From Thermoprotei archaeon (lineage in GTDB: Archaea; Thermoproteota; Thermoprotei; Thermoproteales; B15-G16), in the NCBI GenBank assembly GCA_003649205.1, contig QMRC01000011.1, forward strand, positions 1-59,968: DNA of 59,968 bases, written 5' to 3'. Positions 28,483 to 57,352 of this stretch are shown in pieces. Position 1 is the stretch's first letter, and the number at the start of each line of letters is the position of its first letter. The position numbers and the translations under genes were made by a program. The notes under the pieces are model-generated. The model searched no databases. It saw only the letters and a program-made list of their open reading frames with translations, and had not been told where the DNA came from.

Positions 28483-28486
28483 ATAG

Positions 28487-31400
28487 CTAGCTCACCTCAG
28501 CACTCATGGTAGATGTAACAGCAAGACATAGGTTAAATAAACCATCGGTCAAGCACTTTGCAGTACCAAGTACTTGTTGTGCTCTAGCACTTAACTCAAC
28601 AATCACTTTTGCAGCATATGCTAACTTATTGGTTACAAGATCCCTAAATGCTTCAGGTCCTCTTACTTCGATAAGATTGCTTAGGAACTTAATTGCTAAG
28701 TCTCTATCCTGAATCATGATCTCCATAATCGGTGTAGCAGTAGTTCTCTCTACGAACCTCTCTAAGCTTTCGTACTTCTCCAATATCCTGTAGAACGTTC
28801 TTCGTGACAATGTTTGCTCAAGAAGCGTGAACTTAACCAACTCATTAGCGTACCTAGTGAGTGCTGTTATATGCTCCAACGAAGGTTCCTTCTCCGGGTT
28901 ATTGGGTAGTATAGCTACTCTCAATCTACCCCTAGAGCTATAAGCTACAATCGTTACATCCTTCTCGTACATTGCTCTTGCCTCTCCTATCATGGTAGTA
29001 GCCTTTATACCATCCTTAGTTTCAAGCAGTGTTACAACATCCTCTATGGCAGCATATAATGGGTACATATAATGCGTATAGTACGCACAATAGCTTCTAC
29101 CAGCCAGCCCAAGAGCTGGAGCAATCGGCACATATGGTCTTTCGCCAACAACTATACAGTGGAAGAATGGTACCTTGTCTCTCTTCTCAATGCCGACATT
29201 GAACCCATCTTCAGGTACTTCCAGCATATAGCCTCGAATTGTGAATTTTACTGAAGCACCGATGCTATAAGCAGCTCTCGTCTCGTAAATCATATCTAGC
29301 ACATAATCTATCGGTATAGCAGCAAAATAATCATCACCGCCAGCATACACCACAAATCCTCTAAATGGTATACTTACTTCAACACTCCTGTACTTGACAC
29401 GAGTTCCCCGATACGTTGCTATTATATCTACTAGAGATTGCACCATTAATGCCCTACTTACCGACGTATGCCATGCAGGAGCTGTGGGTATTAATCCTTC
29501 TTTAGCTAGCTTGTCAAGGTACTCCTTTACACATCTAACATGTTCTAATAGATCTTCATGTCTTGCAGGTACCTTTACGTCCTCGATCCTTTCCTTCACT
29601 TTTCCTAGCTCTTCAAGTAAAACATTTACCGCATTCTCTAAATCACCCTGTGCCAAGTAATTAACTACTTCGGCCGCTCTACCTTCACATAGAGCTGCTA
29701 AGTACCTTATTAACCATTCACACTTTAATTTCGGATGTAAAGCCTTAGATATATTGCCCTGCAATAGCTTACCCATATAATCCCCATCTGCCTTGACGAG
29801 AGCTAAGTACCTTGTTGGGAATTTCAACCTGTCAATCTTAGTAACATCAACGTAGAAATTGCGTAAGTCACGCAGATGTGGAGTCTTTGGTTCAATGAAG
29901 TCATCATTTATGCTTGAAGCTTTCCACATCCACACTAATGGCAAAGCTAATCTTTTGTCCGCTTTAACTATTTCATCAACATAATACCTTAGCCAAGTAC
30001 CCCTCAATTTACCAACCCACTCATCAAGTCCTTCCACCAGCTTTGGATATCCTACACAGCTTTCGAGCCTACTTACAAGATCCTTAAGCCTCTCCCTACT
30101 CTTCATAGCTTCCCTCACCATCTTAATGTATATGGCTAGGAATTTCAGATTAGCAATGTCAGAAATCGATGGAACTTCAAAGAACTGTTCTCCAACCTCC
30201 CTACCTAGTAAGCGTCCAACTACGTGCTTTGTACCCTCACGTGTCGATAGCAATCTCTTAATTAGACAATATCCACAAAGCCTCTCACCATCGCTAAAAT
30301 ATGGCTCAAGATCAGTTCCTCTGATAGTAACTATTGGTGGCAACTTACCGCACACACTACAGCTCTCACGTAGCAATTCACCAACCGTACTAGCTGATGT
30401 TCCTATTGAAGTGTAAACCTTCTCATACCTATCTGTTAAGTTCGTTCCAGCTGCTGCATCAAGCTTAGTAGACCAATACATCTCCTGCAGCTTGAATATG
30501 AGTGAAAGCAGTAGATGGTATAGCTCAAAGTCTAGTAATACTAGCTCCCTGCCCCTTATGTCCAACTCCTTAAACCAAGGCAGCAGTTCCCTTAGCACCT
30601 TACTTAAGGCTTCAGGCTTTATCTCCTCCTCACCCGCATCAGGTATAATAGATCTAAATTGCCTAACAATCCAACACCTTGTGTACACAGTAAAGCCACG
30701 TTCTCTAAGTGCCTTAAGTGGGCATAACTCTCGCCTTGGACACCTTATGCATGAATCTTCGAATCTTTCAAGCTCAAAATACAGCACAGTTAACCTTAGG
30801 GGTAACGGTGGAGCTATAGTATAGCCGAGTTCATGTACCGTAGTTGTGAACATGTCTTTTAACGAACCTTCAGAGGTCTTCCCCAAAGTCTTCAACAGCG
30901 ATCGCAAGCTACTTTCGAGTCCCTTCAATGCCTCTACACGTGACCTACTTAACTCGTCTAGTGCATTTGCAGCACAATCACATAGAGCACTCCATATCTT
31001 GCTATACATGCTCGGAATCATGAGTAGGTTATGTAATGCATTTTGCTCACTAGGTAGTACAAGAGTAATTGTTGTTGGTACAACAGCATACATCGGGTAG
31101 TTAGCTACTTTGAATTTTCCTGTTAGGTCAGAGTATATGTACCCATACCAAATAGCTAACTCTGGAAGCCAGGATTTGAATCCAGGTAGTTTGCTCAAGA
31201 ACTCGTACACAGTTTCTCCATCTATGTTAGCTGTTAAGAATGTATGTAAGTAGAATGGATTATTTCTCGGACTAGGCATCAGCAGTACATCTGGTCCGTA
31301 CAATAGTACGAAATCCTCAACTAGCTTCCATGAAAGTACCGATGATAGCCAACTCGCAATGTAGAAGTCGCGTAGCTTACGAGAAGCCTGTATGAATTTT

Positions 31401-32053
31401 TGAACACCAGCTAGATCTAGGAGCCCGAGGTATCCAGCTATTTTGTCCTCTTCTTTAACTAAGTTTATCATCGTAGACGTAGCATATACGTGATCAAATA
31501 CAGAGTGTGTAGGTACCCTAGTATCTGCAGGACCTATTGGTAGACTGGCTCTCCACCAAGCAAACTCGTACAGTGTGTACAGCATGTAGTAGCGAGCCTT
31601 AGGATCGCCTAGTGACTTGAGTATATCGCTTAGGAACCTAACAAAGCTGTCCTTTATGACTCTTGGCTCGGGCTCGAGGGGAGGTATATACCTACCAACA
31701 ACGTCCACCGAAGTCTCGCACACACGTACTGCAAAGGGATTTTTCAATTCAACTCCCTTAAATTCAAATATTCCTGGAACTACACCAAGAATGTCTAGAA
31801 GCCATCTATCAAATGAAGCTGCTAAGCCATCAGCTAATCTAACTGCCCAGCCATATGTGAAATCTTGCTCTAGACCTAAATCCTTAGCTAGTTCGTAGGC
31901 TTCTTCTTCATGTCTCTTCTTGCCATACACACTGAATCCCTTAGCTATTACCCAAGGCTTCCATGGGGGATCATGCAATATAGCAGTGATCTTTCTACGC
32001 CAGAATGTACCATCTACCTCAGGCTTCTTTAACATTACTTCACCATCAATCAC
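28487..32053 (-). CDS. cas10: type III-B Cas10/Cmr2 with HD and Palm domains
   Basis: LHDPPWK (HD), PADTRVP, GVQKFIQASRKLRD, CSVCG..LCGYC, KADGDYMG, YAGGDD. Confidence 0.95.
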   Translation of the reverse strand: MIDGEVMLKKPEVDGTFWRRKITAILHDPPWKPWVIAKGFSVYGKKRHEEEAYELAKDLGLEQDFTYGWAVRLADGLAASFDRWLLDILGVVPGIFEFKGVELKNPFAVRVCETSVDVVGRYIPPLEPEPRVIKDSFVRFLSDILKSLGDPKARYYMLYTLYEFAWWRASLPIGPADTRVPTHSVFDHVYATSTMINLVKEEDKIAGYLGLLDLAGVQKFIQASRKLRDFYIASWLSSVLSWKLVEDFVLLYGPDVLLMPSPRNNPFYLHTFLTANIDGETVYEFLSKLPGFKSWLPELAIWYGYIYSDLTGKFKVANYPMYAVVPTTITLVLPSEQNALHNLLMIPSMYSKIWSALCDCAANALDELSRSRVEALKGLESSLRSLLKTLGKTSEGSLKDMFTTTVHELGYTIAPPLPLRLTVLYFELERFEDSCIRCPRRELCPLKALRERGFTVYTRCWIVRQFRSIIPDAGEEEIKPEALSKVLRELLPWFKELDIRGRELVLLDFELYHLLLSLIFKLQEMYWSTKLDAAAGTNLTDRYEKVYTSIGTSASTVGELLRESCSVCGKLPPIVTIRGTDLEPYFSDGERLCGYCLIKRLLSTREGTKHVVGRLLGREVGEQFFEVPSISDIANLKFLAIYIKMVREAMKSRERLKDLVSRLESCVGYPKLVEGLDEWVGKLRGTWLRYYVDEIVKADKRLALPLVWMWKASSINDDFIEPKTPHLRDLRNFYVDVTKIDRLKFPTRYLALVKADGDYMGKLLQGNISKALHPKLKCEWLIRYLAALCEGRAAEVVNYLAQGDLENAVNVLLEELGKVKERIEDVKVPARHEDLLEHVRCVKEYLDKLAKEGLIPTAPAWHTSVSRALMVQSLVDIIATYRGTRVKYRSVEVSIPFRGFVVYAGGDDYFAAIPIDYVLDMIYETRAAYSIGASVKFTIRGYMLEVPEDGFNVGIEKRDKVPFFHCIVVGERPYVPIAPALGLAGRSYCAYYTHYMYPLYAAIEDVVTLLETKDGIKATTMIGEARAMYEKDVTIVAYSSRGRLRVAILPNNPEKEPSLEHITALTRYANELVKFTLLEQTLSRRTFYRILEKYESLERFVERTTATPIMEIMIQDRDLAIKFLSNLIEVRGPEAFRDLVTNKLAYAAKVIVELSARAQQVLGTAKCLTDGLFNLCLAVTSTMSAEVS

Positions 32054-32937
32054 GCCATATCACCTACCAATAGCTTTACCTCACTAACTTCAAATTTCCC
32101 GTAACCAACTGATGTACGTGCACCTAAACCCAACTTACCAACCAACATAAGTGCTTTAATAATCTCCTTAGCAATGTCTTGAATCGAATAATCCTTCCCT
32201 GTCACTCTCTTCACCTCTAGTTTGAGGAATGGCGTAAGCGCTATGAATCCTCTGAAAACTATACCATCGGCAAGTGATACGTATACAACAGGATTAGGCC
32301 TCACCTTGCTCTCATCCAATTCGTCCTCTGTGTAATGTGGCGTAACTACATCTGGTAGCAGCACTCTGCCATACTCATTCTTAGTATTCACGAGATAGAA
32401 ATCCAGAAACAATACTGAAGTAGCTACAGATCTCTCATGACCCGGCTCTGGGCCAAATACTACCTCCTCTAATCGCTTTAGATCATCTGCAGCAATAACC
32501 CTCCAGCCATGTCTAATAGCTCCCTTAATGCTTGAACCAGGTATGTAGGGTACATTAAGTAATGGATCAAATGCAAGACCTATTTCGAATGCTGATCTGG
32601 CAAATGTAGCTCCAACACCGACTATTGCTCTACTTTTGAATTCCAATTTAACGTCAATCACGGTACAATCAAGTACCTTTAAAGCTTGAAGCACCTTGTC
32701 TAGGTAATTATTGACTATCTTGAATAGCTGCATACTGGAGTATGCTTTTAATAGTTTCTCAGCAAGTCTACGTTTTAGCACATTGTACTTCTCTTCGGCA
32801 CCCTGTACCTTAAGCTTCCATAGCTCACTACTCCAATGTGCTATCCATGTCCATAGATTGTGTTCAGTGCATGTAATGCGCTCTCGCTCAATAATCCTTC
32901 CTCCACCTAATCTCCCTCCAATCCTTTCATCCTTCAT
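32050..32937 (-). CDS. cmr6: type III-B Cmr6
   Basis: PYIPGSSIKGA, DVVTPHY, PNPV, GLGARTSVGYG. Confidence 0.9.
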   Translation of the reverse strand: MKDERIGGRLGGGRIIERERITCTEHNLWTWIAHWSSELWKLKVQGAEEKYNVLKRRLAEKLLKAYSSMQLFKIVNNYLDKVLQALKVLDCTVIDVKLEFKSRAIVGVGATFARSAFEIGLAFDPLLNVPYIPGSSIKGAIRHGWRVIAADDLKRLEEVVFGPEPGHERSVATSVLFLDFYLVNTKNEYGRVLLPDVVTPHYTEDELDESKVRPNPVVYVSLADGIVFRGFIALTPFLKLEVKRVTGKDYSIQDIAKEIIKALMLVGKLGLGARTSVGYGKFEVSEVKLLVGDMA

Positions 32938-32941
32938 ATCA

Positions 32942-34687
32942 TCACCTTAGTGCCTCTAATACAAACTCAAATGCTACCTCAAAGCACGTACGAATGAGGT
33001 CTAGTACATTAGCTGGAGGTTTCAATTCTTCGCATTTTCCTCGTCTAATCAGTCGTATAATTGATAACTCCCTCACAGGCGATAAACCACGTGTATCGCT
33101 AACCCAGACAAGCTCGCTTACTGGCCAATCCATAGAGATGGATCCCCATACAAGTACGAGTGCTCTATTAGTACGTGAATCATAGTTTAGTACACGCATG
33201 AATAGTGGACTAGGTCTACGTAAATTCATTCCAGGACTGTAGCCTGTGCCTCTTTGCTCTCTTGGTAAACCTAGAATCCAAGTATGCCATTTGCCATCTG
33301 CTACCTTAGGTGATCGACCACACAACTTCTTCCATGTAACCTTCATTGTTGCTTCGCCTATCTTCCTAAGTAAATGTGATAGCCCTGTTGTCTCCACTGA
33401 AATAACACGAATTCTCGTTATTTCTCTATCAAGTGTCAATGCGAAGTACCTAGGACATTTAGTGTAAAGTTCTCTTTTGAGCTTATCAAAGTCAATGCCT
33501 CTGCTTTTGCCAAACCGTTTAAGTGCGTTCTCTGCCTCCACTATAGCCGTCTCTATTAGCTTCCAGAGCTTATTTTCGGCTATCTCATGGTTCATCTTAT
33601 CAATTGGCTCGATGACCTCTTTCACTACTTTACGAATTTCATCGTATGGTATATAGCTTCTGTCTAAAAGTAATTTTAATGAACAGAAACCTCTTCGTGT
33701 ACATTGCCCATATCCGTATAGCAGTGCACTAAGTATTGCGGAGTATACCATTAGATAATCGAAGGACTTAATTGCGTCTAGTAGCACTCCAATTGATGGT
33801 AGACTTATACCCGCCTCCTTTAATGCCTCATAGTATCTTCTAGCATATTCTTCAAGAACCTCGTAGTTTAACCTTGTGATCTTTAGGTGGAGTTTACCCT
33901 GCTCTATTGACGATATCTTTTCATACATTATTTTGCGTATAGTCTCGGTAATGTTTTCGTACTTGATTTTCTCACATAGCGATGCAAGTACTAATACTAA
34001 CCTTTGTACTTCCTGTACCGATATCCGTCTTATTCTTTCCAATTGCTCCTTTATCTGCTTAAGCTCACTATGGATTTCGTATGTTAGCCCAAATTCGTAC
34101 CAGTAGTCAAGTAGCATGTCGACTATTCGTCGAATTCTCTGAATTGCCTGACGAAGCTTTTGTGTGTTTATACCTCCCCCAGACTTTAGCCACTCTATGT
34201 CCTTCAGGGTGCTTCTTTCACGTGTTATTAGCAAAGCTAAACGAGGTATTTCCTTAAAGCTTTCGATCTCATCCTCTTCAATGTATTTTTCCGGTATTAC
34301 CCTTGCATCGATGCTATATACTGAGCTTACTAGCTTTCCAGTTACTGGTACTTTGCCTCCCAGACATAGAACAAGTAGCTCCTTTACTAGCTTCTGGACC
34401 TTTTCATTACTAATGTCAACTCCGGCATGAATGGTTGCACCTAAGAGGAGGTGCTTCAGTGTATATCTTAGGACCCCTTTCACGCTTTTGCTCACGTACT
34501 GTTCAGACCAGGGATGCTCGGGACTGCCAATCACGTGTACTTCAAGAGGAGTTGCCTTATAGCTACCGATCCTCAGGGGCGTGATTATCTCAAATGTTAA
34601 CTCGCATACAGTCTTCAGACTTGTCTCCGCTAATTTACCTACCTCAGCTCTTATTGAGTCTATGTTAAGAGATACTTCCTGAACCAT
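32942..34687 (-). CDS. cmr1: type III-B Cmr1 (long form)
   Basis: ITPLRIGSY, KSVKGVLRY, GYGQCTRRGFCS, LGLPR, RRPSPL. Confidence 0.85.
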   Translation of the reverse strand: MVQEVSLNIDSIRAEVGKLAETSLKTVCELTFEIITPLRIGSYKATPLEVHVIGSPEHPWSEQYVSKSVKGVLRYTLKHLLLGATIHAGVDISNEKVQKLVKELLVLCLGGKVPVTGKLVSSVYSIDARVIPEKYIEEDEIESFKEIPRLALLITRERSTLKDIEWLKSGGGINTQKLRQAIQRIRRIVDMLLDYWYEFGLTYEIHSELKQIKEQLERIRRISVQEVQRLVLVLASLCEKIKYENITETIRKIMYEKISSIEQGKLHLKITRLNYEVLEEYARRYYEALKEAGISLPSIGVLLDAIKSFDYLMVYSAILSALLYGYGQCTRRGFCSLKLLLDRSYIPYDEIRKVVKEVIEPIDKMNHEIAENKLWKLIETAIVEAENALKRFGKSRGIDFDKLKRELYTKCPRYFALTLDREITRIRVISVETTGLSHLLRKIGEATMKVTWKKLCGRSPKVADGKWHTWILGLPREQRGTGYSPGMNLRRPSPLFMRVLNYDSRTNRALVLVWGSISMDWPVSELVWVSDTRGLSPVRELSIIRLIRRGKCEELKPPANVLDLIRTCFEVAFEFVLEALR

Positions 34688-34690
34688 GGT

Positions 34691-35254
34691 CTACCCACCG
34701 TACTTGGCATCTGTTAGTTCTTTGAGCACATTGTACATAGGTCTAAGGAAGTACATTACCAGAGCTAGCTCTGTTGTCGATAGCTCGGATATCTTCTCGA
34801 GTAGGTTCTCAACAGTTAAAGTACCCATACGTGGTACAGGACAATGTTGTGCTAGCCATTGCACAGTTGCGTAGAGAAATGCAGCATATCCAACGGCTTC
34901 ATCAAACTTTCCCTGTAACACACTTTTGACTTCTTCTATAGTTATCTTTCCATCCAGATACCCTGCTATAATGTCACATATACTGCATTCTACGCATCCT
35001 TGTCTATATTCTCTAACTTCTTTACCTAGCTTTTTGGCTATTTCTACTGGTACTCTAACTTTATCAGAGGCCTTGGCATATGCAAATGCTAAGGTAGCTA
35101 CAATACCTACATCCTCCATTAATTGTGGCAGCGTTCTGCATCGCGTACGGAATTTTTCACCATAATCCCGCTTATACTTGGCTAATTCATCAAATCGGCT
35201 TATTATTTCAAGGCAATGCTTTAAAGCGTCCTGCGATAACCTACGTATGGGCAT
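34691..35254 (-). CDS. cmr5: type III-B small subunit Cmr5
   Basis: FRTRCRTLPQLMEDVGIVATLAFAYAK, helical; position in the cmr operon. Confidence 0.85.
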   Translation of the reverse strand: MPIRRLSQDALKHCLEIISRFDELAKYKRDYGEKFRTRCRTLPQLMEDVGIVATLAFAYAKASDKVRVPVEIAKKLGKEVREYRQGCVECSICDIIAGYLDGKITIEEVKSVLQGKFDEAVGYAAFLYATVQWLAQHCPVPRMGTLTVENLLEKISELSTTELALVMYFLRPMYNVLKELTDAKYGG

Positions 35255-35260
35255 GCCTTG

Positions 35261-36286
35261 CTACACCCCAAGGAGCTTCACTATGCCACGACCTATCGTC
35301 TCATGACCTCCTAGGATTAGGTAGCCGCCTTCCTTCAGCTTTAGTTTCTCTGTAATGTACTCTTTGATCTCCTTCTCTCCTGGTTCTTTACCGGTTAGCT
35401 TCCTAAACTCTTCTGCCACATCTGCCTTTCTCACCATTGAGTATAGGAAAACTGTTACAAATATCGTATACTCTGGAACATTTTCCTCAAGCCAAGGACC
35501 TTCGTCAACTACCTTAATAGCCGGCTTGAGACGGACACGTGCTTGACGGATAATACTTCGCTCAATAATTTCACGACCAATTGTATCGGGAACTACTGCA
35601 AGACCAACTTCTGTCAATGTGCATTGCTTTGGTAGGTTATTTAGAAATGTATCCACTTCCTTTAGAGACCTTACCTTGAGCTTGAATTCTTCATTTAACA
35701 CAATTTCATTACCTATAGCTGTCTTTTGAAGGGCATTCGAGGTAACTATTGCAGTGTCTTCACTTAACTCTTGAGTAGTCTTTTCCAGCAATGCTTTAGC
35801 TATGTCGTAGTATCTCTTTGCGTCCTCACTACCATAGATGTCAAAATATAGCTTTGTATATGTTTTGAAATATCTTAGTAGTTGTGGTGTTGTAATATAT
35901 ATCCACACACCTCGCAGAGACCTAGCTGGAATTGCTAGCAACTTTCCCTCAAGTATGGCGATTGCACCTGTGAACATTTCTGTAACTCCACGTACTTCAG
36001 GAGGCGGACCAAAGAGAGCTTTAATTATAGGATTTCTGTTTGCTTCATTAATTGCCTCGTCTAACTTCTTACCATCTTTAATCAGCTTAGGTACTAATTC
36101 TGACACAAACCTTGCTCTCAATGGCCCCTTTAGACTCGATGGTGGTATCACTGGGTATCCAAACGCATCCCTCTGTATGGGTAGGTCAACTACACCTATT
36201 GCCCTTCCTGTACCCACGTGCACCGGTGTAATTGCCTCTATAAATACAAGAGAGGCTTCACGATACGTACCAGCGACCAAGCTCAA
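35261..36286 (-). CDS. cmr4: type III-B Cmr4 backbone RNase
   Basis: TPVHVGTG..VVDLPIQRD (catalytic Asp), PSSLKG, LGGHETIGRG. Confidence 0.95.
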   Translation of the reverse strand: MSLVAGTYREASLVFIEAITPVHVGTGRAIGVVDLPIQRDAFGYPVIPPSSLKGPLRARFVSELVPKLIKDGKKLDEAINEANRNPIIKALFGPPPEVRGVTEMFTGAIAILEGKLLAIPARSLRGVWIYITTPQLLRYFKTYTKLYFDIYGSEDAKRYYDIAKALLEKTTQELSEDTAIVTSNALQKTAIGNEIVLNEEFKLKVRSLKEVDTFLNNLPKQCTLTEVGLAVVPDTIGREIIERSIIRQARVRLKPAIKVVDEGPWLEENVPEYTIFVTVFLYSMVRKADVAEEFRKLTGKEPGEKEIKEYITEKLKLKEGGYLILGGHETIGRGIVKLLGV

Positions 36287-37468: not shown

Positions 37469-38197
37469 ATGCCTTTGAGGGTGCTGATTACTCCTTTGGG
37501 TCTTGCTCCTGGCGCTGTAACTACAGTTCTAGATGGTTTAAGGGATAAGCTTAAGATCAAGGTTGATGGGGTGTACATCGTTACTACTAGCTATGGTGAT
37601 ATCGTAAGTAAGGTAGTACCGTTTCTAAAGGAGGAACTATATCGATGCTATGGTATTACCGATATCATCGACAAGTACATTAGCGGTACAGACATAAGGT
37701 CTCTAAATGACTTCATTGAGTACATGAGGATTTGTGCAGGTATACTGAAGGAGCAGAGAGCAGCTGGCAATGAGGTTTATATTTCAACTGCGGGCGGTAG
37801 AGGACCTATGGGTGCTGCACTTACTGTACTTGGCTATATCTTCAGTGATATCGTGAAGTTAATAGTTCATGCGGTAGTCCCTGAAGAAATTGAGAAACAA
37901 GGCTCAATCAAAGTACTTGAGACGCTATCTGAGGAAAAGCGTAGAGAAATTCTTCACCCTAGCAACTACGAGTTAGTTACCCTACCTGTATTACCACTTA
38001 AGTGGACTCTAGACGATATCCTCACCACGCTTGAGATTAAGTCAACAACAAATATTGAGGATATTAAGCGTAGGCTACCCCATATATCCAATGTCGTCGA
38101 AGATTGCATTAGACATGGATTATTGAAGAAGCTTGATGATAGGTATGAGAGAACTACCGTAGGTGAAGCACTGTATAGAGCACTTAAAGCTCCTTAA
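37469..38197 (+). CDS. CARF protein (Csx14/NE0113 ring-nuclease-like) with C-terminal wHTH
   Basis: ITPLGLAPGAVT, DIRS, ISTAGGRGPM, LVTLP. Confidence 0.75.
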   Translation: MPLRVLITPLGLAPGAVTTVLDGLRDKLKIKVDGVYIVTTSYGDIVSKVVPFLKEELYRCYGITDIIDKYISGTDIRSLNDFIEYMRICAGILKEQRAAGNEVYISTAGGRGPMGAALTVLGYIFSDIVKLIVHAVVPEEIEKQGSIKVLETLSEEKRREILHPSNYELVTLPVLPLKWTLDDILTTLEIKSTTNIEDIKRRLPHISNVVEDCIRHGLLKKLDDRYERTTVGEALYRALKAP

Positions 38198-38418: not shown

Positions 38419-39387
38419 TCACTCAACCTCATAGATGTCAACAGTTTTCTCATCTCTCTTCACAATCATGAGTTGACGACCCTTAACCTCTACCTCATAC
38501 ACGTAACCTGTGATTAAGTTCCTAGGATCTATCTGCACAGTATCGTCCACAACCTTAATACCTTCCACGAACTTCTTCTTCAGTAAGTACTTAATCCAAG
38601 GTCTAATCGTGTAGCTCTCAGATTCACCTCTCTCACGAACAATACCTCTCGCCTTAAGTTCTTTAGGTAGCTCACTTGCTGGTACTACATCTCTAGTACC
38701 GAAGATACACAGTATCTTCTTTGCCAGCTCTGGATCTAGACAGAGCTTCAGTACAGGTAGTGTCACGACCTTTCTGAAGGTTTCATGTATGTAGTACACG
38801 AGATCAACGTCGTAGAGTGTAGCTAGTACGTAGAGAAATGATGATTCAGGCTTAAAACCACCTGTTAGGTTTAGAGCTACATTAAACCCCTCTTCCTTAG
38901 CCCTCGTAATCAACCTACTCGCTGTATCCATCAATTGCGCCAACGCTTCATCAAAGTACTCAGGACCCCAACCCCAACGACCAATCACATGCACCTCACA
39001 CGGAGTACCCAACTGCTCCCTAATCACCTTACGCAAGATCTCTCCAGAAAACCTACCCAAACCCGTGGCTGTAACCAGTAGGTGAATCCTACTAGCTCTC
39101 AACGTAGGATCCTCCTCAATGAGACCAACGTAGGCATTAAGCTCAGCAGAAATCCTCAAATTACTCCTCAACCTCTCAAGCACAACATCCTGAAGCTTCC
39201 TAAGACGAGCCTCAACAAGCCTCTCCTCCTCAGACCCAGGCACAACCTTAAGCGCACTATCAACAACCTCAATAAACTCCCTCTCAACATCACTCAACAC
39301 AGCACCACTAACTCTCCTCTCCTTAAGCTCCCTACAAACATTCAACACATGAGCAACACCAACAGTAAAGACATGAACCCAAGACAT
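38419..39387 (-). CDS. APE2256/SSO1393-family CARF protein (Crn1-type ring-nuclease-like)
   Basis: FTVG, SAELNA, LNLTGGFKPE, YYIHETF..VVTLP; start at ATG 39387. Confidence 0.85.
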   Translation of the reverse strand: MSWVHVFTVGVAHVLNVCRELKERRVSGAVLSDVEREFIEVVDSALKVVPGSEEERLVEARLRKLQDVVLERLRSNLRISAELNAYVGLIEEDPTLRASRIHLLVTATGLGRFSGEILRKVIREQLGTPCEVHVIGRWGWGPEYFDEALAQLMDTASRLITRAKEEGFNVALNLTGGFKPESSFLYVLATLYDVDLVYYIHETFRKVVTLPVLKLCLDPELAKKILCIFGTRDVVPASELPKELKARGIVRERGESESYTIRPWIKYLLKKKFVEGIKVVDDTVQIDPRNLITGYVYEVEVKGRQLMIVKRDEKTVDIYEVE

Positions 39388-39600
39388 CGAAACCCCCAAA
39401 GTACACCACACACCCCACATACATAGATTACTCAGAAAACAACCACCATACAGACACAACACCTCACCAAAACCAACAGAACAACTTCAAGACACAGAAA
39501 CCAGAGACCACAACTAAAAGAGAACCAAACTCAAAGCACAAGTAAACCAAACTCACCAAAACCCACCCCTAATACAACCACCAAGTTCAAACCAACAACC

Positions 39601-42600
39601 CCTCTAATACTTGTTTCAAGTGATCACATAGTTGATAAGGTTAAGAGAGGTGATAAGGTCTTTCAATGTTTGTTTCTGCTCCCTGGGCGTACATTGAGTA
39701 CTTCGGCTTCGGTTACCACACTTTCAATGTTTGTTTCACCGAGCTGATGTGTCAGTGGATTAAGGAAAATCTGTGAGATTTTTCTCTTTCAATGTTTGTT
39801 TCGATGCTGCAGCTGTTCGTGGAGACGGAGATGTTCGGTACAGTGGCTTTCAATGTTTGTTTCGCACGTGTACTTCCACATCACTCAGGAGTACATACTC
39901 GACCCACACAGTCTTTCAATGTTTGTTTCTCTACGTGAACCCACCTTAATCTTCTCCTTTTTCTCACTCATTCGGGGCTTTCAATGTTTGTTTCTGTAAA
40001 GGACCTAATACACACTTTCAGCCAACACAGCAGGAGGCTTTCAATGTTTGTTTCGATAGTAGCAATGCTGAGAGAAGGCTACAGTCCAAGCACAATCTTT
40101 CAATGTTTGTTTCGGCTCGTACTAGAGTACCTCATGTATGAGGGAACAGGAACAACACTCTTTCAATGTTTGTTTCTAGGCCACCCATTTGATGACCTAG
40201 AGAAGCTAGTTAGAGAATTCCTGCTTTCAATGTTTGTTTCGGAACAAACAAAGTTCTATGATGGAATTTCCGAGGAAATCAAGCTTTCAATGTTTGTTTC
40301 GGTAGAAGGTGATGGCTTTGTCAATACGTGAATCTAAAGTCACTTTCAATGTTTGTTTCTACGTATGCCCACGTTGTTTAGCAGAGCTCCAGTACGCAGG
40401 TCTTTCAATGTTTGTTTCACTAGGAGAATTAGGTACTGGGTCTTCAGGGCCATTGGCTGGATACCTTTCAATGTTTGTTTCTTTGCTTTACGGAAAAGTA
40501 TACACTGCAATAAAAGGACATATGATAATCTTTCCAGCTTTCAATGTTTGTTTCCCTGTTACAAAGACACTCAGAGAACATTTGAAGTTACCTCTTTCAA
40601 TGTTTGTTTCACTACAATGGCTGTGAGCCGCAGAGGACGTACATTGAACTTTCAATGTTTGCTTTCAATGTTTGTTTCGTTGCACGCGTTAATAAACAAG
40701 TGCCTTCTTGAGTTGTGCTTTCAATGTTTGTTTCGAGAGGTCTCTCAATACTTGTTGGTCTTCACAGGGATTATCGCTTTCAATGTTTGTTTCGGATTCT
40801 AGGATTAGGTTATATAACATGGACTGTGTTATCTTTCAATGTTTGTTTCAAGCAAATCAATGAGTTGCTGAGTGAGCTTAGGGAGCTCTTTCAATGTTTG
40901 TTTCCAGAGGAGAAAAAAGAGAAGAAAAAGAAAGTAATTGACCTTCACTTTCAATGTTTGTTTCAGCTCATAAAGTTCTTGTGTGGTTGCTAACTAAGGT
41001 AACTCCCTTTCAATGTTTGTTTCACTTCATTGCCCTAGTGAGGTTGTTCATGGAATTGCAATGGCTCTTTCAATGTTTGTTTCAACATGAAGTTGCGATT
41101 TTGAGAGATGGAAAGGTTATAGATCCTTTCAATGTTTGTTTCCAAGCTAAAGAATTAGTCAAAGAAAAAGAGCTAACAGTGATCTTCACTTTCAATGTTT
41201 GTTTCATTTGGGCGACCAACTGATTTACATTGTTCCTGAGAGACCCTTTCAATGTTTGTTTCGAGAAACTCAGACTTAGTAGGCTCGTAGTGGCTCACAC
41301 TTTCACCCTTTCAATGTTTGTTTCAAAAGAAAGGGATGCAAATAATAATTCACACCGAAATTGATTGCGGCTTTCAATGTTTGTTTCACAGGAAGTTATA
41401 CATTGCCGAAAGAGGGCATATGTTGATTCTTTCAATGTTTGTTTCAGGAACTGGGTGCTATTCGAGTGATGTCTGCTAGGCTCAAACTACCTGTTCTTTC
41501 AATGTTTGTTTCTCAGTAAGTACGGTAGAGGTGTACAGTGTACACCATTAATCATCTTTCAATGTTTGTTTCACGCAGTTCTGAGGCTACTGAGAGACCT
41601 AATGAAGTACGTCTTTCAATGTTTGTTTCACTAGCGTTTTTAACTGACAAGATAGTAAAGCTAGAAGACAAAGTCTTTCAATGTTTGTTTCTAAACTACC
41701 TACGAAAACTTTTCTCGTGAAGAAAATAGCTTTCAATGTTTGTTTCCAGTAGTTGATAAGTTGCGTAGAGTAACAACAGAATTACTAACTTTCAATGTTT
41801 GTTTCACAGGCTTGTTGAGGAATATAGAGGTGAGGTGTACGAGTTCTTTCAATGTTTGTTTCGACTTATCTCTAACCTGTCTATCTCTGTGTCTGTTAGT
41901 CCTCTTTCCTTCTTTCAATGTTTGTTTCGGTGCTTTCATTGCTGGTGTGGGTAGGGAGTACCTATTCCTCTTTCAATGTTTGTTTCACCCAAGTGAGTTT
42001 ACTGATGCAGTGAGGAAGCTAGCTGTGGTCTTTCAATGTTTGTTTCGTACAGGATCCTAAAGCGTTACGAAAGTGACCAGGAGTTTACTTTCAATGTTTG
42101 TTTCTAGGGACTTGATAGCGATTACGACACTTGCGCTACTGTTAATCCTTTCAATGTTTGTTTCGATATACTGTTAGCGACACGATGTTTGCTATGTTCC
42201 TCAAAATGTGCTTTCAATGTTTGTTTCAAGGAAGCTACGCTACAAGGCATTAAGTCACAGGTAGATACTTTCAATGTTTGTTTCGAACAGCAGGTTAAGC
42301 TACTCGAAGAACTCAGGAGAAGAGACTTTCAATGTTTGTTTCAGAAGTACCCAGAGAGAGAGGAGGAAGAAAAAGAGTCCTCATGGTACTTTCAATGTTT
42401 GTTTCAAATATCCAACAACAAGAGACGAGGAAGAACAGGAAGGGCTCTTTCAATGTTTGTTTCAACCAATGAGGGTTACAGTGGTTTACGAGTACGGGTG
42501 CAGTAACCTTTCAATGTTTGTTTCCAGAAGTACCGAGCAGACATCATAGTACCTGTACTACCACTATCAACTTTCAATGTTTGTTTCAAGTCTCATAAGA

Positions 42601-43540
42601 GTACGAAACGAATTGTCCTCAAAATTCGTCTTTCAATGTTTGTTTCGAGAAAATTGTAGTTCTGCTCACTTCACTACTTCTTACCTTAACTTTCAATGTT
42701 TGTTTCACGGAAGCTCTAGCTGATGTCCCTGTTGCAGTGTATCAAGACGGTACTTTCAATGTTTGTTTCTTTGCTTTACGAGAGGTGAGTAGACGTGAGG
42801 TACAGGGAATTACTTTCTTCACTCATGCTTTCAATGTTTGTTTCAAGAGATAGAGAGGGAACTAAAGAACATCGAAGACATGACCTTACCAAGCTTTCAA
42901 TGTTTGTTTCAATTCATCATAGGTGTCGAAATCTACAAACGTAACTTGTACTTTCAATGTTTGTTTCCATGAGTTGCTTCACCTAGTGTTTGCAGAGAAA
43001 CAGAAACGTCTTTCAATGTTTGTTTCGCGTGAACTCCTAGCTAAGTGTCTAGAAGAATTGAAAGCTAACTTTCAATGTTTGTTTCACGAGCTTTTTTCAT
43101 ACATCTCTAACCTCATTTCCAAGTCTCGTTCTCCTTTCAATGTTTGTTTCTTGAACCAGCCAAGGAATTTCGAATAATAGAATATACGAATTTGGTACCT
43201 TTCAATGTTTGTTTCATTCAGTTCTACGTACTCAGCACAGAGCAAGTAATCAGAATCTTTCAATGTTTGTTTCGGGTAGACAGTAATGGTGGAACAGACA
43301 TTGATTACGCTATTAGGGTCTTTCAATGTTTGTTTCGTCGGTACGGTTCCTGTCGTGATTACTCACGTATATGTCCTCGATGTGGTTCTTTCAATGTTTG
43401 TTTCACTCGACAACGGTACGGAAATCAAAGAGCTGAACTATGAGGTAAAGGGTAACTTTCAATGTTTGTTTCTTTGCTTTAAGCAATACAAATAGCAACA
43501 ACATACAGAGACACTTAAATACACTTTCAATGTTTGTTTC
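39601..43540 (-). CRISPR. CRISPR array, 17-bp repeat CTTTCAATGTTTGTTTC (crRNA sense GAAACAAACATTGAAAG), about 64 exact repeats
   Basis: exact repeats counted by eye from 39660 to 43524-43540; unique spacers mostly 38-51 nt; degenerate terminal repeat CCTCTAATACTTGTTTC at 39601; ATTGAAAG 3' end on the minus strand. Confidence 0.95.
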
Positions 43541-43760
43541 TTTGCTTTTGTTCATGACTGGTTCCTGTGTCTATGTTGTTTAACTGGTTAATTTTTGTTG
43601 CTTTTTGTTGTTTTGCTGATGTTATTCATTTGCTCTTTATCAAATGTGCTTCTGCCCAGTATGTCCTATATTTAAACCTTACCTATTGTCCCTGTGATGG
43701 TTCGGGTATATAAGGTTAACTCTATTTTGTGTGTTGCTTTCTGTGTCTTGGGTAAGTTTC
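43541..43760 (-). promoter_or_regulatory. CRISPR leader
   Basis: non-coding AT-rich stretch next to the intact end of the array, opposite the degenerate repeat; minus-strand TTTAAATA (about 43670) and TTATATA (about 43708) boxes. Confidence 0.7.
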
Positions 43761-43773
43761 TTTACTGTGTTGT

Positions 43774-44265
43774 GTGTTGTTTTCTTTGGTGTTTTGTGTG
43801 GTTGAGTTGTCTGCTGATTTCATTGTTGGGTTGTTTGAGAGGGATGTTAGGGCTCGTCGTAGGTTGGTTGAGCTTCTTGTTTCTGAACCTGAGATTAGGT
43901 TAGCTATTGTTAATGCTGTTCTTAGGGAGGTTGCTCTGAAGTCTGATATTGAGGGTTTGGGAGGGGAACTTCGTGAGGAGTTGGAGAAATTGAGGAGAGA
44001 GTTTAGGGAGGAGTTTAAGGGGGTTAGGAGGGAATTTCGTGAGGGGCTTGAGAAGGTGAGGCTTGAGCTTAGGGATTACGTTAATTTGAGGATTGGTGAG
44101 GTTGGGGATTACTTGGTTAAGTACATTGATGGTAGGGTTGCTGATCTTCATAGGAGAATTGATGATCTTGGTAGGTGGTTGAGGGCTACGTTAGTTGCTG
44201 TATTGCTAACCCTTATCTCTACAGTGCTCTCACCACTTGTGCTGAAGATCCTCGGTATTCTATGA
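43774..44265 (+). CDS. coiled-coil protein with C-terminal TM (paralog family, distant copy 3)
   Basis: IRLAIVNAVLREVALKSDIE matches VRVAILRAIVREAATKEDIE of 25190-25672; true start probably near 43798. Confidence 0.7.
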   Translation: MLFSLVFCVVELSADFIVGLFERDVRARRRLVELLVSEPEIRLAIVNAVLREVALKSDIEGLGGELREELEKLRREFREEFKGVRREFREGLEKVRLELRDYVNLRIGEVGDYLVKYIDGRVADLHRRIDDLGRWLRATLVAVLLTLISTVLSPLVLKILGIL

Positions 44266-48045: not shown

Positions 48046-48816
48046 CTAGGTTACGAGTCTCTTAATCCACTTCCTCAATGTTAATTCACCTGTTTTTGTA
48101 TCTCTTACCAGTACTCCTCTCTGCTCCAGCATCTCTATGTACTTATCACTTAGTTGTTCCCACTTACCTAGTTCTGGTACTAACTGTATTGGTACTGTAG
48201 GTAGCTCGATTACCTCCTTCATGAGTTCGTGTATGTAGTAGACCTTGTCTATTCCTGCTAGACAGGCATAGAGGTAGAGCACTGCTGTTTCTGGTTTGAA
48301 TCCACCTGTTGCATTGAGTAGTACTCTGTAGCCTGCTCTCCTCAGTTGAGGGATGGCTGTGGTTAGTATGTCTAGTAGGTTGTGAATACCCTCCTCGAAG
48401 TCTATACCTAGTTTCTGAACTCTAGTAGCTTCGACATACGGTATGTTCCTTATCTGTCTTAGGTAGTGCTCCAGTATCTTTGCACAGAAGTAGCATGTTC
48501 CGCTATCTGTTGTGATTAGGAGTACGTACTCTACCCTACCTTTTGCTAGGTAGTTCCACATTGCATTTAGCTCTGCGCTGTACTTTCTGGGGTTTTGTGT
48601 GAGTACTTCATATGCTCTCTTGAATTCTGTTGTTCCTGGTGATGCCTTGTTACCTGCTTCTACGTCATCTGGTGAGTTGGGTAGTGATCGTGACCATCGT
48701 ACATATGGTTCACCTAGTTCCTGAGCTATGTTCCTTACAATGCTCGTACCTACTGTAACTACGTGTGCTTCAGCACCTACTCTACTAGCTCTAGGAGGTA
48801 TGTGGGGATATGCCAA
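48046..48816 (-). CDS. APE2256/SSO1393-family CARF protein (ring-nuclease-like), second copy
   Basis: VTVGTSI, SAELNA, TTDS, LNATGGFKPE, YYIHE..VIELP. Confidence 0.85.
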   Translation of the reverse strand: MAYPHIPPRASRVGAEAHVVTVGTSIVRNIAQELGEPYVRWSRSLPNSPDDVEAGNKASPGTTEFKRAYEVLTQNPRKYSAELNAMWNYLAKGRVEYVLLITTDSGTCYFCAKILEHYLRQIRNIPYVEATRVQKLGIDFEEGIHNLLDILTTAIPQLRRAGYRVLLNATGGFKPETAVLYLYACLAGIDKVYYIHELMKEVIELPTVPIQLVPELGKWEQLSDKYIEMLEQRGVLVRDTKTGELTLRKWIKRLVT

Positions 48817-53460: not shown

Positions 53461-54519
53461 TTACTCACACCTAACTACGTAGGATATGTGTGGTTCACTA
53501 ACGGGTAGAGTGAGTACGTACTTACCGCATCCAGCAGCTGCTAACTGACCAACACCCATGTACTGACCAAGTATCAGTAACTGAAGAGCTAGCATACTAA
53601 TGCTTTTTCTCCAGAAGGATTGCTGCACCTCGTACACGAAGTAACCCCTAATGAATGTTCCGAGAACCCTCCTCTCATCACTAGCAATCATGTACTTACG
53701 TAGAACAACCTTACTCCTATGTGCGTATACCAACTTCGCATTAGCCCTAACAGCATCCCTAAGCTCTCTAGCTTCAAGCACTGAGAGTACTTGACCAACC
53801 CTGTGAAATGCAGCTAATTGACTATACCTCCTAGCTAAATTCATCACAATGGCGTGTAGTGGCGGCTCAGTTACTACCTGACGATTGTGCACTACCATGG
53901 TTGGTGTCGTGAAGTTCAGGACTATGTACCTAGGCCTTAACTCCCTAAGAGCAATTGCCTTCTTCTCAACTCTCCTCAGTAAATCATCACTTAGCACGGT
54001 AGTGGGTATTGGTTCCCTGATGATACCAGCATCGTCCCTATAGACTACCTGTACTGAACCCGTAAAGGGGTCAATTCTGAGAATTCTTGAGATAAAGAAC
54101 CTCCTCCTCTCACCATACCTAGCATCCATACCTAGACCCAACATACCACACTTCAGTAGTGATAGTATGATCACTGGCTCACATCTAAGCTCAATCAAGT
54201 ACCTAGGTGCTAGCAAGTAGAAGCCAAATACTATCTCACGACCACGGATGATAGCTGGTTCAACTGAGTAAGGTCTCGATACACCAGCTCTTGCACCTCT
54301 CTTAGCGAAATCAACATCATAGTCACAGCTCCTACTCTCGAAGAAGTGGTAGTAGATGCACCTCCCTCTCATGCAGCAACCACTGCAGTTTCGAGAACCA
54401 GTAACACAGCACACACTACGTAGAGCAGAACCAATCATCCCTCTAGTAGCAAATCCAGTGAATCCCCTCGGTCTAGTGTAGTCTCTAGCTAGAACACCAT
54501 GTACGAGGTACAGAAGCAT
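53461..54519 (-). CDS. cas6: Cas6 endoribonuclease (Cys-rich type)
   Basis: GFATRGMIG, CC..C..C...C.Y cluster, FTTPT, G-loop GVGQLAAAGCGKY. Confidence 0.85.
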   Translation of the reverse strand: MLLYLVHGVLARDYTRPRGFTGFATRGMIGSALRSVCCVTGSRNCSGCCMRGRCIYYHFFESRSCDYDVDFAKRGARAGVSRPYSVEPAIIRGREIVFGFYLLAPRYLIELRCEPVIILSLLKCGMLGLGMDARYGERRRFFISRILRIDPFTGSVQVVYRDDAGIIREPIPTTVLSDDLLRRVEKKAIALRELRPRYIVLNFTTPTMVVHNRQVVTEPPLHAIVMNLARRYSQLAAFHRVGQVLSVLEARELRDAVRANAKLVYAHRSKVVLRKYMIASDERRVLGTFIRGYFVYEVQQSFWRKSISMLALQLLILGQYMGVGQLAAAGCGKYVLTLPVSEPHISYVVRCE

Positions 54520-54563: not shown

Positions 54564-55247
54564 GTGGAGTTCGGTGATGGTGATGGTGTGAGGCTTGGTT
54601 TACTCCCCGTTACAGTGTACGCTAGGGATCTCGTTGATTACCTCATATGCCCTCACCGCATATACTTAAGGAGGTACCTGTACCTACGTGGAGTAGTTAC
54701 GGAGTACATGAGTGTTGGTGGTGAGGTACATAAGCTCCTGTACATGTACCTTCAGGGACGTGACGTTGGGAGGGAGCTGGTTAGGTACGGGATTGATGTG
54801 GGTAAGTTACGTGAGGTCTATAGTGAGCTTAGGAAGTTAGGTGATGTGGAGTGTGAGGTCGAGGTAGGGTATGGGCCGCTTGCTGGTTCCATAGATTTGC
54901 TCGCTGGTGGGGTCCCTGTAGAGGTTAAGTACAGTACGAGACCTAGGTTCGGTGATGTGGTGCAGCTTGCATTCTACGTACTCTTACTGGAGCTCTCGAA
55001 GGGAAGGAACATATCTCGAGGTTACTTACTGTACCTCCCCTCCTGTAATCTCATTGAGATCAAGGTTGAGAGTTGGTTAAAGAGACTTGTTCTCGAGTTT
55101 TGTAAGGAGGTTCAACTCATTAAGTTAGGTCTCGTAGATTCTAGTCCTCGGTCGAGAAGAGCTTGCAAGGGGTGTGAGCTAGGTATGTACTGTAAATTCC
55201 GTGGTGAGGGGGGTGCCGAAGAGAGGTCTCTGGCTTCTCGTAGGTAG
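54564..55247 (+). CDS. cas4: Cas4 exonuclease
   Basis: YLICP, GGEVH, GSIDL, VEVK, QLAFY, CKGC.....C. Confidence 0.9.
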   Translation: MEFGDGDGVRLGLLPVTVYARDLVDYLICPHRIYLRRYLYLRGVVTEYMSVGGEVHKLLYMYLQGRDVGRELVRYGIDVGKLREVYSELRKLGDVECEVEVGYGPLAGSIDLLAGGVPVEVKYSTRPRFGDVVQLAFYVLLLELSKGRNISRGYLLYLPSCNLIEIKVESWLKRLVLEFCKEVQLIKLGLVDSSPRSRRACKGCELGMYCKFRGEGGAEERSLASRR

Positions 55248-57297: not shown

Positions 57298-57352
57298 CAA
57301 GTAAGTAACTACGTGAGGTATCGATATCAGTAACCACACAGGTACACACTCT

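Follow-up and report, generated by a model that had tools for sequence, protein, structure and literature searches.

The window, the whole stretch of 59,968 nt that was analysed, holds a genuine CRISPR array in the minus-strand reading GAAACAAACATTGAAAG, here called array A, whose repeat is only 17 bp long. The array and its borders are laid out as follows.

39660-43540, minus strand: CRISPR array A, 64 exact 17-bp repeats (GAAACAAACATTGAAAG in crRNA sense) and 63 unique spacers
39601-39617, minus strand: degenerate terminal (trailer) repeat, 12/17 identical to the repeat
40649-40661, minus strand: 13-nt partial repeat, an aberrant unit without spacer that abuts the full repeat at 40662
43541-43773, minus strand: leader of array A, 35.2% GC (window 42.9%)

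The 17-mer CTTTCAATGTTTGTTTC was matched 65 times at up to two mismatches, on the plus strand only, with 64 exact copies and one copy with two mismatches at 40649, while dinucleotide shuffling gave a mean of 0.02 matches and reached 65 in 0/100 shuffles. None of the 14 positions before or the 14 positions after the 17-mer carries more than 0.17 bits of information, and 17 bp is thus the true conserved unit of the array. The 63 spacers span 38–58 nt when parsed naively (median 43) and 38–51 nt after removal of an 8-nt extension described below, and the last of them, in front of the degenerate terminal repeat, is 42 nt long. An earlier note made from the sequence had described about 64 identical 17-mers between freely varying bases, unique spacers of mostly 38–51 nt, a degenerate trailer repeat and an AT-rich leader, and the values given here confirm that description, refined by the 8-nt extension, the partial repeat at 40649 and the existence of a second array. 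The 17-nt repeat RNA is unstructured (MFE 0), the repeat length falls outside the catalogued range (CRISPRdb, at least 23 nt), and the region 39300-44000 had no match in Rfam.

Within and next to the leader, four kinds of element can be distinguished.

43553-43570, minus strand: conserved leader motif
43635-43703, minus strand: conserved leader block, containing the TATA-like TTTAAATA at 43665-43678
43541-43548, minus strand: leader end of 8 nt, in crRNA sense AAAGCAAA, which extends the first repeat to a 25-nt form
40482-40489, 42770-42777 and 43473-43480, minus strand: internal copies of the leader-end 8 nt, inside array A

About 175 nt of this leader are homologous (78%) to the leader of a second array on another contig of the assembly, C4, and the leader promoter is predicted to lie in the TATA-like block. 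The 8-nt extension equals the last 8 leader nucleotides and is found in three units of array A (plus strand TTTGCTTT at 40482, 42770 and 43473); the counts for the 17-bp arrays are 3/63, 4/72 and 2/16 internal units (9/151 in total, about 6%), scattered along the arrays. The copied leader end is exactly 8 nt long and lengthens the repeat that it accompanies to 25 bp, and the spacer-side boundary of the repeat is constant in all 154 repeats examined. Such copying of leader-end nucleotides, seen in 9/151 units, suggests that the integrase can cut in two registers.

The assembly consists of 31 contigs and looks binned, and the end of the window coincides with the end of C4.

59846-59968, no strand assigned: contig-end overlap, in which the final 123 nt of the window and the final 123 nt of C4 are exact reverse complements of each other

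The overlapping sequence is unique in the genome, in which seven contig-end pairs overlap by exactly 123 nt. It connects the window to a run of C4 features comprising a gene for a 385-aa orphan protein, Cas1, a second Cas2, a gene for a 271-aa orphan protein, a leader and the sister array B. Array B contains 73 exact copies of the 17-mer and one aberrant unit in which two repeats stand 2 nt apart, and all 137 repeats of the two arrays are identical. On the strength of this 123-nt graph overlap, arrays A and B appear to flank a single island of about 19.65 kb with both leaders facing inward. Encoded on the island are Cas4, a Cas6-family protein, Cas2 in two copies and a Cas1 of very divergent sequence. 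Genes of the cas type adjoin the arrays, with the Cmr module, Cas4, the Cas6-family gene and Cas2 in the window and Cas1 across the 123-nt link; those of the window are listed here with the CARF genes.

27331-36286, minus strand: Type III-B Cmr module, on the outer side of array A
35261-36286, minus strand: Cmr4, above the NCBIfam cut-off
34691-35254, minus strand: Cmr5, above the NCBIfam cut-off
32942-34687, minus strand: 581-aa protein without family assignment, between Cmr5 and Cmr6
32050-32937, minus strand: Cmr6, above the NCBIfam cut-off
28487-32053, minus strand: Cas10/Cmr2, above the NCBIfam cut-off, GGDD motif at residue 905
27331-28482, minus strand: Cmr3, 77 bits, below the NCBIfam cut-off of 100 and above the Pfam cut-off
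37469-38197, plus strand: CARF/ring-nuclease-like gene, in the interval that separates the Cmr module from the trailer of array A
38419-39462, minus strand: CARF/ring-nuclease-like gene, in that same interval
48046-48816, minus strand: CARF/ring-nuclease-like gene, inside the island between the arrays
53461-54519, minus strand: Cas6-family gene, candidate processing enzyme for the 17-nt repeat (PF10040, 41.4 bits, cut-off 25)
54564-55247, plus strand: Cas4 (TIGR00372, 68.1 bits, cut-off 65)
59040-59531, minus strand: CARF-domain gene, at the window end
59594-59812, minus strand: Cas2, at the window end

By its predicted products, Cas10/Cmr2 with the GGDD motif, Cmr3, Cmr4, Cmr5 and Cmr6, the module at 27331-36286 classifies as Type III-B; no Cmr1 was identified within it. 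Three candidate Cas6-family genes are present in the genome, at 53461-54519 of the window, at C4:15643-16455 and at about 272.5k of contig C1. A word search found no relatives of the protein encoded at 53461-54519, and its single-sequence structure model was unusable (pLDDT 31). The Cas1 of C4 belongs to PF01867 (176 bits), has PDB relatives that include 4wj0 and 7ei1, and can be aligned with the Cas1 of C1 so that conserved E, H and D positions match (E...YLH...SLxLD), positions that we take to be the catalytic residues. It is 26% identical to that type I-A Cas1 of C1, and its nearest relative among 1.84 billion representative proteins is 36% identical. Distant Cas1 relatives in the class, 27–37% identical, adjoin repeats of about 35 bp and are too remote to say anything on ancestry. 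Cas1 and Cas2 of C4 are separated from the array B leader by about 0.9–1.2 kb, an interval that includes one orphan ORF. The proteins of 385 and 271 aa encoded next to Cas1 and Cas2 had no family, no significant PDB relative (best E 0.3) and no usable atlas match, and for the 385-aa protein no sequence relatives were found.

The spacers give the most direct measure of where the repeat ends. None of the 201 spacers of all arrays is duplicated, and 12 of them match the array-masked assembly at E≤1e-5, against 0/201 reversed and 0/1005 shuffled controls. Nine of the matching spacers belong to the 17-bp arrays and hit contigs C17, C20, C8 and C26, which are part of this binned assembly. The mobile nature of the four contigs is only partly supported; C17 resembles a virus or plasmid. 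The spacers of the 17-bp arrays are foreign-derived and stem from mobile elements on co-assembled contigs. Six of them align with their protospacers from end to end (41/41, 42/43, 41/42, 39/40, 47/47 and 46/52), and the leader-proximal spacer of array A matches in 43/43 positions and then diverges exactly at the 8-nt AAAGCAAA. These six matches, flush with the 17-mer, show that the repeat is truly 17 bp and no decayed 25-mer. A conventional 25-mer of 8 + 17 nt, decayed or freely varying over its first 8 nt and with the 17-mer as its conserved part, would account for the leader-proximal copy and the 9/151 internal copies being exactly 25 nt, as in the I-A repeats of C1, and for a mean period of about 61, close to that of arrays with 24–25-nt repeats and short spacers. 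It is nevertheless very unlikely. The 8 nt upstream of the 17-mer are protospacer-derived in the six end-to-end matches, the upstream positions do not exceed the 0.17 bits given above, and the 25-nt copies are scattered with no clustering at the old end of the array. Parsing by 25 bp would also shorten the spacers by 8 nt, whereas parsing by 17 bp yields medians of 43, 44 and 44.5 nt in the 17-bp arrays, in line with 44.5 and 45 nt in the two 25-bp arrays of C1.

The earlier note had made protospacer matches a point on which its reading could fail. They were found on the co-assembled contigs and not in public virus collections: both arrays had no BLAST match among the INPHARED phage records, no spacer matched IMG/VR, and the 1087-aa protein of C17 had no relative in IMG/VR. 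The 17-mer itself occurred in IMG/VR as 21 single matches on unrelated phage contigs, which had no tblastx similarity and are ascribed to chance. Among seven protospacers within a long ORF, six are antisense to it (p about 0.06, one-sided, small sample), a bias in keeping with RNA targeting.

Whether these arrays could have been filled by the conventional system of the same genome deserves consideration, as contig C1 carries two type I-A arrays with the 25-bp repeat GAATCTTGATTAGAAGAATTGAAAG. Were the arrays real and devoid of adaptation machinery of their own, the C1 Cas1-Cas2-Csa1 might feed them in trans and mis-measure the repeat; both repeat families end in the ATTGAAAG tag, and the rare 25-bp duplications have the I-A repeat length. 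We consider this decidedly improbable. The upstream protospacer flank is CCA in 3/3 cases for the 25-bp arrays, whereas in the nine spacers of the 17-bp arrays, a small sample, it shows C at -2 (7/9), A/T at -1 (8/9) and G at -3 (6/9), with no CC. The leaders of the two systems are unrelated, a BLAST search of the array-masked assembly having found no counterpart of the 17-bp-array leaders at the C1 arrays, and a second Cas1 with aligned E, H and D positions lies with Cas2 close to the leader of array B. A narrower proposal would have the I-A integrase act in trans to produce only the 25-bp events; it is disfavoured by the single informative flank, GCA, which is that of the one spacer tied to such an event.

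Arrays with the same repeat were also met outside this genome. A metagenome contig (L033), the only one of 17-bp-repeat type among seven stretches returned by a metagenome scan, has 17 copies of the same repeat with all spacers different, and a sequencing run of another study (X2) has the leader and the 17-bp repeat between other spacers. The 17-bp arrays thus differ between populations. Logan contigs of a further run (X1) tile the whole of array A with 0 differences; that run is possibly the sample of origin and lends no independent support. The earlier note had raised the collapse of longer repeats during assembly, which the contigs exclude within the limits of what contigs can show. Misassembly is frequent in CRISPR arrays, and an assembly of 31 binned-looking contigs invites the suspicion that repeats were collapsed or reads chimerically joined, yet an artefact of this kind is extremely unlikely: 63 unique spacers between exact 17-mers cannot arise by collapse, the X1 contigs agree with array A in full, and X2 and L033 have the same repeat with other spacers. 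A 17-bp repeat, shorter than the usual assembly k-mers, should moreover cause no ambiguity in the graph.

The locus is apparently active. The view that the arrays are fossil, no longer expanding or expressed, draws on the observation that no RNA run among the public runs holds the locus and on the one aberrant unit in each array, the 13-nt partial repeat in A and the two repeats 2 nt apart in B. It is decidedly improbable, given that 137/137 repeats are identical, that the leader-proximal spacer of array A matches a co-assembled element in 43/43 positions, and that other populations have the same leader and repeat with different spacers. In addition, the array contigs of X1 have about half the depth of their flanks, contig depths being rough, which is what would be expected if spacer content varies within the population. 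We therefore favour, with a probability of roughly 80%, a working class-1 CRISPR locus with a truly 17-bp repeat, in which two arrays surround the island of about 19.65 kb with its own adaptation genes and a Cas6-family gene, the III-B Cmr genes lying outside array A. The earlier note had proposed a maintained array with a repeat made up of the 8-nt ATTGAAAG tag and 9 further nucleotides, and this is likewise supported by the cas neighbours, the leader common to two arrays, the flush protospacers and the independent metagenome contig.

In most respects the locus resembles crenarchaeal I-A/III-B arrays, exemplified by C1, with their unstructured repeats of 24–25 bp: the 3' end ATTGAAAG is the crRNA 5' tag and there is no stable hairpin, spacers measure about 40–50 nt, the leader is AT-rich with a TATA-like box, the last repeat is degenerate, Cmr and CARF genes are neighbours, and the targets lie on co-occurring mobile elements. 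It differs from the I-A arrays of C1 in a repeat shorter by 8 bp (17 against 25), another leader family, a flank with C at -2 instead of CCA, and a Cas1 of its own. Several Cas6-family genes and repeat families with a common 8-nt tag are shared with Sulfolobus solfataricus, for which PMC4041471 describes several Cas6 paralogues, several repeat families and one 8-nt tag; of these paralogues, Cas6-3 cuts without a hairpin and also processes a non-CRISPR RNA, and Cas6-1 recognises 11 nt upstream of its cut that form a 3-bp stem and a 5-nt loop. Unlike for Cas6-1, only 9 repeat nucleotides precede the inferred cut in the present repeat and no such stem can form, and recognition is therefore probably hairpin-independent or through the tag side.

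Repeat-length rulers of Cas1-Cas2 integrases reportedly exist also in E. coli I-E and S. thermophilus II-A (PMC5039180 and PMC6895254). These two, H. hispanica and P. furiosus duplicate 28–36 bp, whereas here 17 bp are duplicated and, unlike in the ruler systems, the leader side has a second, discrete register at a distance of exactly 8 bp. Exact duplication is explained by a fixed leader-side site and a second cut at a set distance in Haloarcula hispanica (PMC4872114) and Pyrococcus furiosus (PMC6698737), and in the former type I-B system a changed motif spacing led to off-size duplications of 29–33 bp, which the 17/25-bp alternation resembles.

The 17-bp repeat is shorter than any we found described in the literature searched, in which neither the 17-mer nor a comparable array was found, and the question of the earlier note whether such repeats had already been catalogued is answered in the negative for these papers. 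CRISPRdb has a lower limit of 23 nt; CRISPRDetect lists predicted repeats below it, and its paper (PMC4869251) gives the shortest verified repeat as longer than 20 nt and mentions 29 short-repeat predictions, all but one with fewer than about 5 repeats, as needing experimental support. Those predictions and the present arrays both fall below the 23-nt limit, but the present arrays comprise 64 + 73 repeats and are accompanied by cas genes and protospacers. The further suggestion that such arrays could be systematically missed was left unsupported by a restricted survey, since no comparable short-period ATTGAAAG array was present in 519 other genomes of the phylum (all 119 surveyed from the class, plus a phylum sample of 400). 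A sister genome (G001, 71% complete), uninformative in this respect, had neither the 17-mer nor any ATTGAAAG array assembled, and a scan of GTDB species genomes for two copies of AAACATTGAAAG 35–62 nt apart returned 13 stretches, all in bacterial records. Within this restricted survey, the results suggest that arrays with such short repeats are rare rather than widespread.

As to mechanism, the Cas1-Cas2 of the island may make its top-strand cut where the leader end (...CAAA) meets GAAAC and its bottom-strand cut directly after ATTGAAAG, and with each new spacer two such cuts would duplicate only 17 bp. A leader-side cut displaced upstream by exactly 8 nt, as in about 6% of events, would instead lead to the copying of a 25-bp unit. 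Transcription of the array is presumed to start from the conserved TATA-like leader block, a hairpin-independent Cas6 could then cut between GAAACAAAC and AUUGAAAG to leave the usual 8-nt 5' tag, and the main user of the crRNAs may be the Cmr complex, acting on mobile-element transcripts. Judging by the geometry of solved integrases, the two Cas1 active sites probably lie further apart than the 17-bp repeat can span. A possible explanation, held tentatively and at a little under even odds, is a lineage-specific, highly divergent Cas1-Cas2(-Cas4) integrase that has evolved a 17-bp target-site duplication, together with a Cas6 needing only 9 nt upstream of its cut. If so, the repeat would be much shorter than the inserted spacer of about 43 bp, integration would require either that the repeat, being AT-rich, melts or that two attacks follow one another with a change of register, the 25-bp alternative register would be the visible trace of such integration, and the tag plus 9 nt would be the natural minimum of a CRISPR repeat.

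Repeat length is usually seen as nearly fixed, at no less than 23 nt, and as set by integrase geometry and Cas6 recognition. Array finders with a floor of 23 nt can miss real immunity loci, and the 17-bp repeat offers a compact option for engineered arrays. With 137 copies and a discrete 25-bp outcome, the two arrays constitute a natural experiment on how Cas1-Cas2 measures a repeat and on how short a sequence suffices for Cas6 and the effectors, and the locus may show how little repeat is required for spacer insertion and guide-RNA processing.

The 17-mer CTTTCAATGTTTGTTTC, claimed earlier in about 64 identical copies, is present in exactly 64 at window positions 39660-43540 (array A), all on the plus strand, against a mean of 0.02 matches expected in shuffled sequence. 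One further match, the 65th (40649), covers just 13 nt of the repeat and directly abuts the next full copy. At each of 14 positions on both sides of the 17-mer the information does not exceed 0.17 bits, and the conserved unit is thus exactly 17 bp, with the bases outside it free to vary as the earlier note had it. The 63 spacers are all distinct, and no duplicate of any was found when the genome's arrays and L033, a metagenome contig, were pooled (201 spacers). On the minus strand the repeat reads GAAACAAACATTGAAAG, with the tag ATTGAAAG at its end, and in this sense an AT-rich flank lies upstream and a degenerate copy downstream. The leader flank (43541-43773) has 35% GC compared to 43% for the window. 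The unique spacers, AT-rich leader and degenerate trailer repeat of the earlier note all hold. The features around array A are:

39601-39617: degenerate terminal repeat, 12/17 identical, after a 42-nt last spacer
Leader side: CARF-like gene
Leader side: HerA helicase
53461-54519, leader side: Cas6-family gene (PF10040, 41 bits; cut-off 25)
54564-55247, leader side: Cas4
Leader side: CARF-domain gene
59594-59812, leader side: Cas2

Contig C1 of the same genome carries a canonical type I-A locus (Csa3, Csa1/Cas4, Cas1, Cas2, Cas6, Cas3'', Cas3', Cas5a, Cas7 and Csa5), with two arrays of 31 and 23 normal 25-bp repeats, which provided an internal yardstick for the short-repeat arrays. Parsed at 17 bp, the latter have median spacers of 43, 44 and 44.5 nt, compared to 44.5 and 45 nt in the 25-bp arrays. 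When the assembly was searched with its arrays masked, 12 of 201 spacers had a match on another contig (E≤1e-5), as against 0/201 reversed and 0/1005 shuffled controls. Six spacers of the 17-bp arrays align to their protospacers from first to last base (41/41, 42/43, 41/42, 39/40, 47/47 and 46/52), so that the target is the source of the bases immediately next to the 17-mer on either side. A 25-mer with a decayed 5' part is excluded by these flush protospacers and by spacer sizes equal to those of the 25-bp arrays. The earlier reading of a 17-bp repeat made up of the tag plus 9 nt is supported.

The repeat is also found outside this assembly. L033 (1079 nt) has 17 copies of the same 17-mer, spacers that all differ from those of the genome's arrays, and two ACGGCAAA extensions. 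Logan contigs of the public run X1 tile the entire array A with zero differences, at about half the depth of the flanks; X1 is perhaps the source sample and does not count as independent support. In run X2, from a separate study, the leader was found with a few differences, together with the repeat between other spacers. Pieces from X2 and a third run, X3, cover certain spacers only and resemble targeted elements. A longer repeat collapsed by assembly cannot explain the X1, X2 and L033 sequences, which are contigs rather than raw reads.

The 2.07 Mb genome, in 31 contigs, harbours a sister array (array B) on contig C4 with 73 exact copies of the same 17-mer; at unit 18 two full repeats are just 2 nt apart. 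The two leaders share about 175 nt at 78% identity. Common to both are an 18-nt motif located 12 nt upstream of the repeat and a TATA-like block, which in the window spans 43635-43703 and contains TTTAAATA (43665-43678). The array B leader is neighboured by a 271-aa orphan ORF, Cas2, the 321-aa Cas1 and another orphan ORF, of 385 aa, before the contig ends. Window and C4 end in the same 123 nt, in exact reverse complement, and this 123-mer is absent from the rest of the genome. Since exact 123-nt overlaps occur at seven contig-end pairs of the assembly, such pairs are taken as neighbours in the assembly graph, and by this overlap arrays A and B most likely bound a single island, about 19.65 kb long, into which both leaders face.

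Beside the trailer end of array A lie two CARF/ring-nuclease-like genes, together with a type III-B module that looks complete (Cmr4, Cmr5, a 581-aa protein without assignment, Cmr6, Cas10 with GGDD, and Cmr3). Between Cas4 and Cas2 in the island lies a 492-aa PIWI-domain protein (56119-57597, minus strand; PF02171, 39.7 bits) with a weak NCBIfam argonaute match; argonautes encoded inside cas1/cas2/cas4 clusters are known. A 163-aa coiled-coil-like ORF (43774-44265, plus strand) adjoins the array A leader and has DNA-level paralogues (about 71%) at C4:28108-28316 and at C1:272186-272473, the latter between the first I-A array and cas6; these may form a small array-linked gene family. Strand asymmetry is strong at 39200-39600 and 43541-44000: where a minus-strand gene precedes the array, the plus strand has next to no G or T, and where a plus-strand ORF follows the array, it is rich in G+T, so that sense strands look G+T-rich and C-poor.

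The first repeat is preceded by the 8 nt AAAGCAAA in array A and ACGGCAAA in array B, and these leader-end octamers recur before internal repeats (3/63 in array A, 4/72 in array B, 2/16 in L033), scattered along the arrays. The leader-proximal spacer of array A matches contig C17 over 43/43 nt and diverges exactly where AAAGCAAA starts; the extended units are thus 25-bp duplications, in which the repeat was copied along with 8 leader nt. On the spacer side the boundary is constant in all 154 repeats examined. The simplest account would be an integrase whose cut after ATTGAAAG is fixed and whose leader-side cut can fall in either of two registers, 8 bp from each other; the major register would duplicate 17 bp and the minor one (about 6%) 25 bp. 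This is consistent with the repeat 'rulers' described in PMC4872114 and PMC6698737, where altered motif spacing gives off-size duplications.

The 17-bp arrays appear to be served by an adaptation machinery distinct from the I-A module. Protospacers of I-A spacers have CCA upstream in 3/3 cases, while among nine of the 17-bp arrays CC was absent (0/9) and C was found at -2 in seven, A/T at -1 in eight and G at -3 in six; for the spacer linked to a 25-bp event the motif is GCA. No leader similarity was detected between the two array families. The Cas1 proteins of C4 and C1 align at conserved E, H and D positions with 26% identity overall. When 1.84 billion representative proteins were searched in full with HMMER, the nearest relative of the C4 Cas1 had 36% identity and only two proteins, itself included, reached E≤1e-30.

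The arrays are presumably transcribed and processed. The repeat RNA is unstructured (MFE 0), with 9 nt of repeat upstream of the inferred Cas6 cut. S. solfataricus Cas6-1 recognises a 3-bp stem and 5-nt loop (PMC4041471), for which these 9 nt are too short, whereas a hairpin-independent enzyme such as Cas6-3 would be compatible with them. Three Cas6-family genes were found, in the island, in the I-A locus and stand-alone on C4. The stand-alone gene (C4:15643-16455; L040:9644-10456; TIGR01877, 75 bits) has housekeeping genes around it (aCPSF1, CDP-archaeol synthase, proteasome, thermosome) and is some 100 kb away from array B. Protospacers in long ORFs were antisense in 6/7 cases, a small sample, as RNA-targeting by Cmr would require.

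Spacer targets were located on contigs C17, C20, C8 and C27. Besides many small ORFs, C17 (22.6 kb) has genes for a glycosyltransferase and for a tape-measure-like protein of 1087 aa. C20 and C8 share a 123-nt overlap at their left ends; C8 has two Cas4-like matches and an ORF (C8:81891-82502) targeted from both array families. Two spacer pairs (C4 #12/C11 #53 and C4 #46/C11 #42, C11 being the window) are similar but non-identical across the two arrays, as if drawn from the same gene of related elements.

Stray copies of the 17-mer also occur. A solitary one at C26:75-91 (L046), about 12 nt downstream of a TTTAAATA box, has neither the 8-nt extension nor a second repeat and is followed by a hairpin downstream; window spacer 42 has its protospacer on this same 4.4-kb contig (C26:803-844). 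The solitary copy could be a repeat unit on a mobile element, acting as decoy or mini-guide. A mini-array at C15:41937-42001 (L042) consists of an exact 17-mer, 31 nt without a match elsewhere in the assembly, and a 1-mismatch copy, amid GC-rich palindromes and without leader homology. Contig C21 (10.4 kb, 39% GC) has a 39-nt overlap between its own two ends and is perhaps a small circular element.

In the literature searched, the repeat was found on neither strand, and mentions of 17-bp or 17-nt CRISPR repeats were unrelated uses only. The CRISPRDetect paper (PMC4869251) gives the shortest verified repeat as >20 nt, and describes all but one of 29 predictions below 23 nt as tiny arrays. A scan across GTDB, with a single genome for each species, for the repeat's last 12 nt at array-like spacing gave stretches in bacterial records only, at the record level. 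A pattern of three ATTGAAAG tags at periods of 48-60 nt, which detects ATTGAAAG-tagged arrays only, had 40 matches in this genome, one each in 2/119 other genomes of the class, and 1-5 in 5/400 sampled genomes of the phylum, where the matches listed show 24-nt repeats. The 17-bp-repeat array is a real one; so far it is apparently unique, and it is informative about mechanism.
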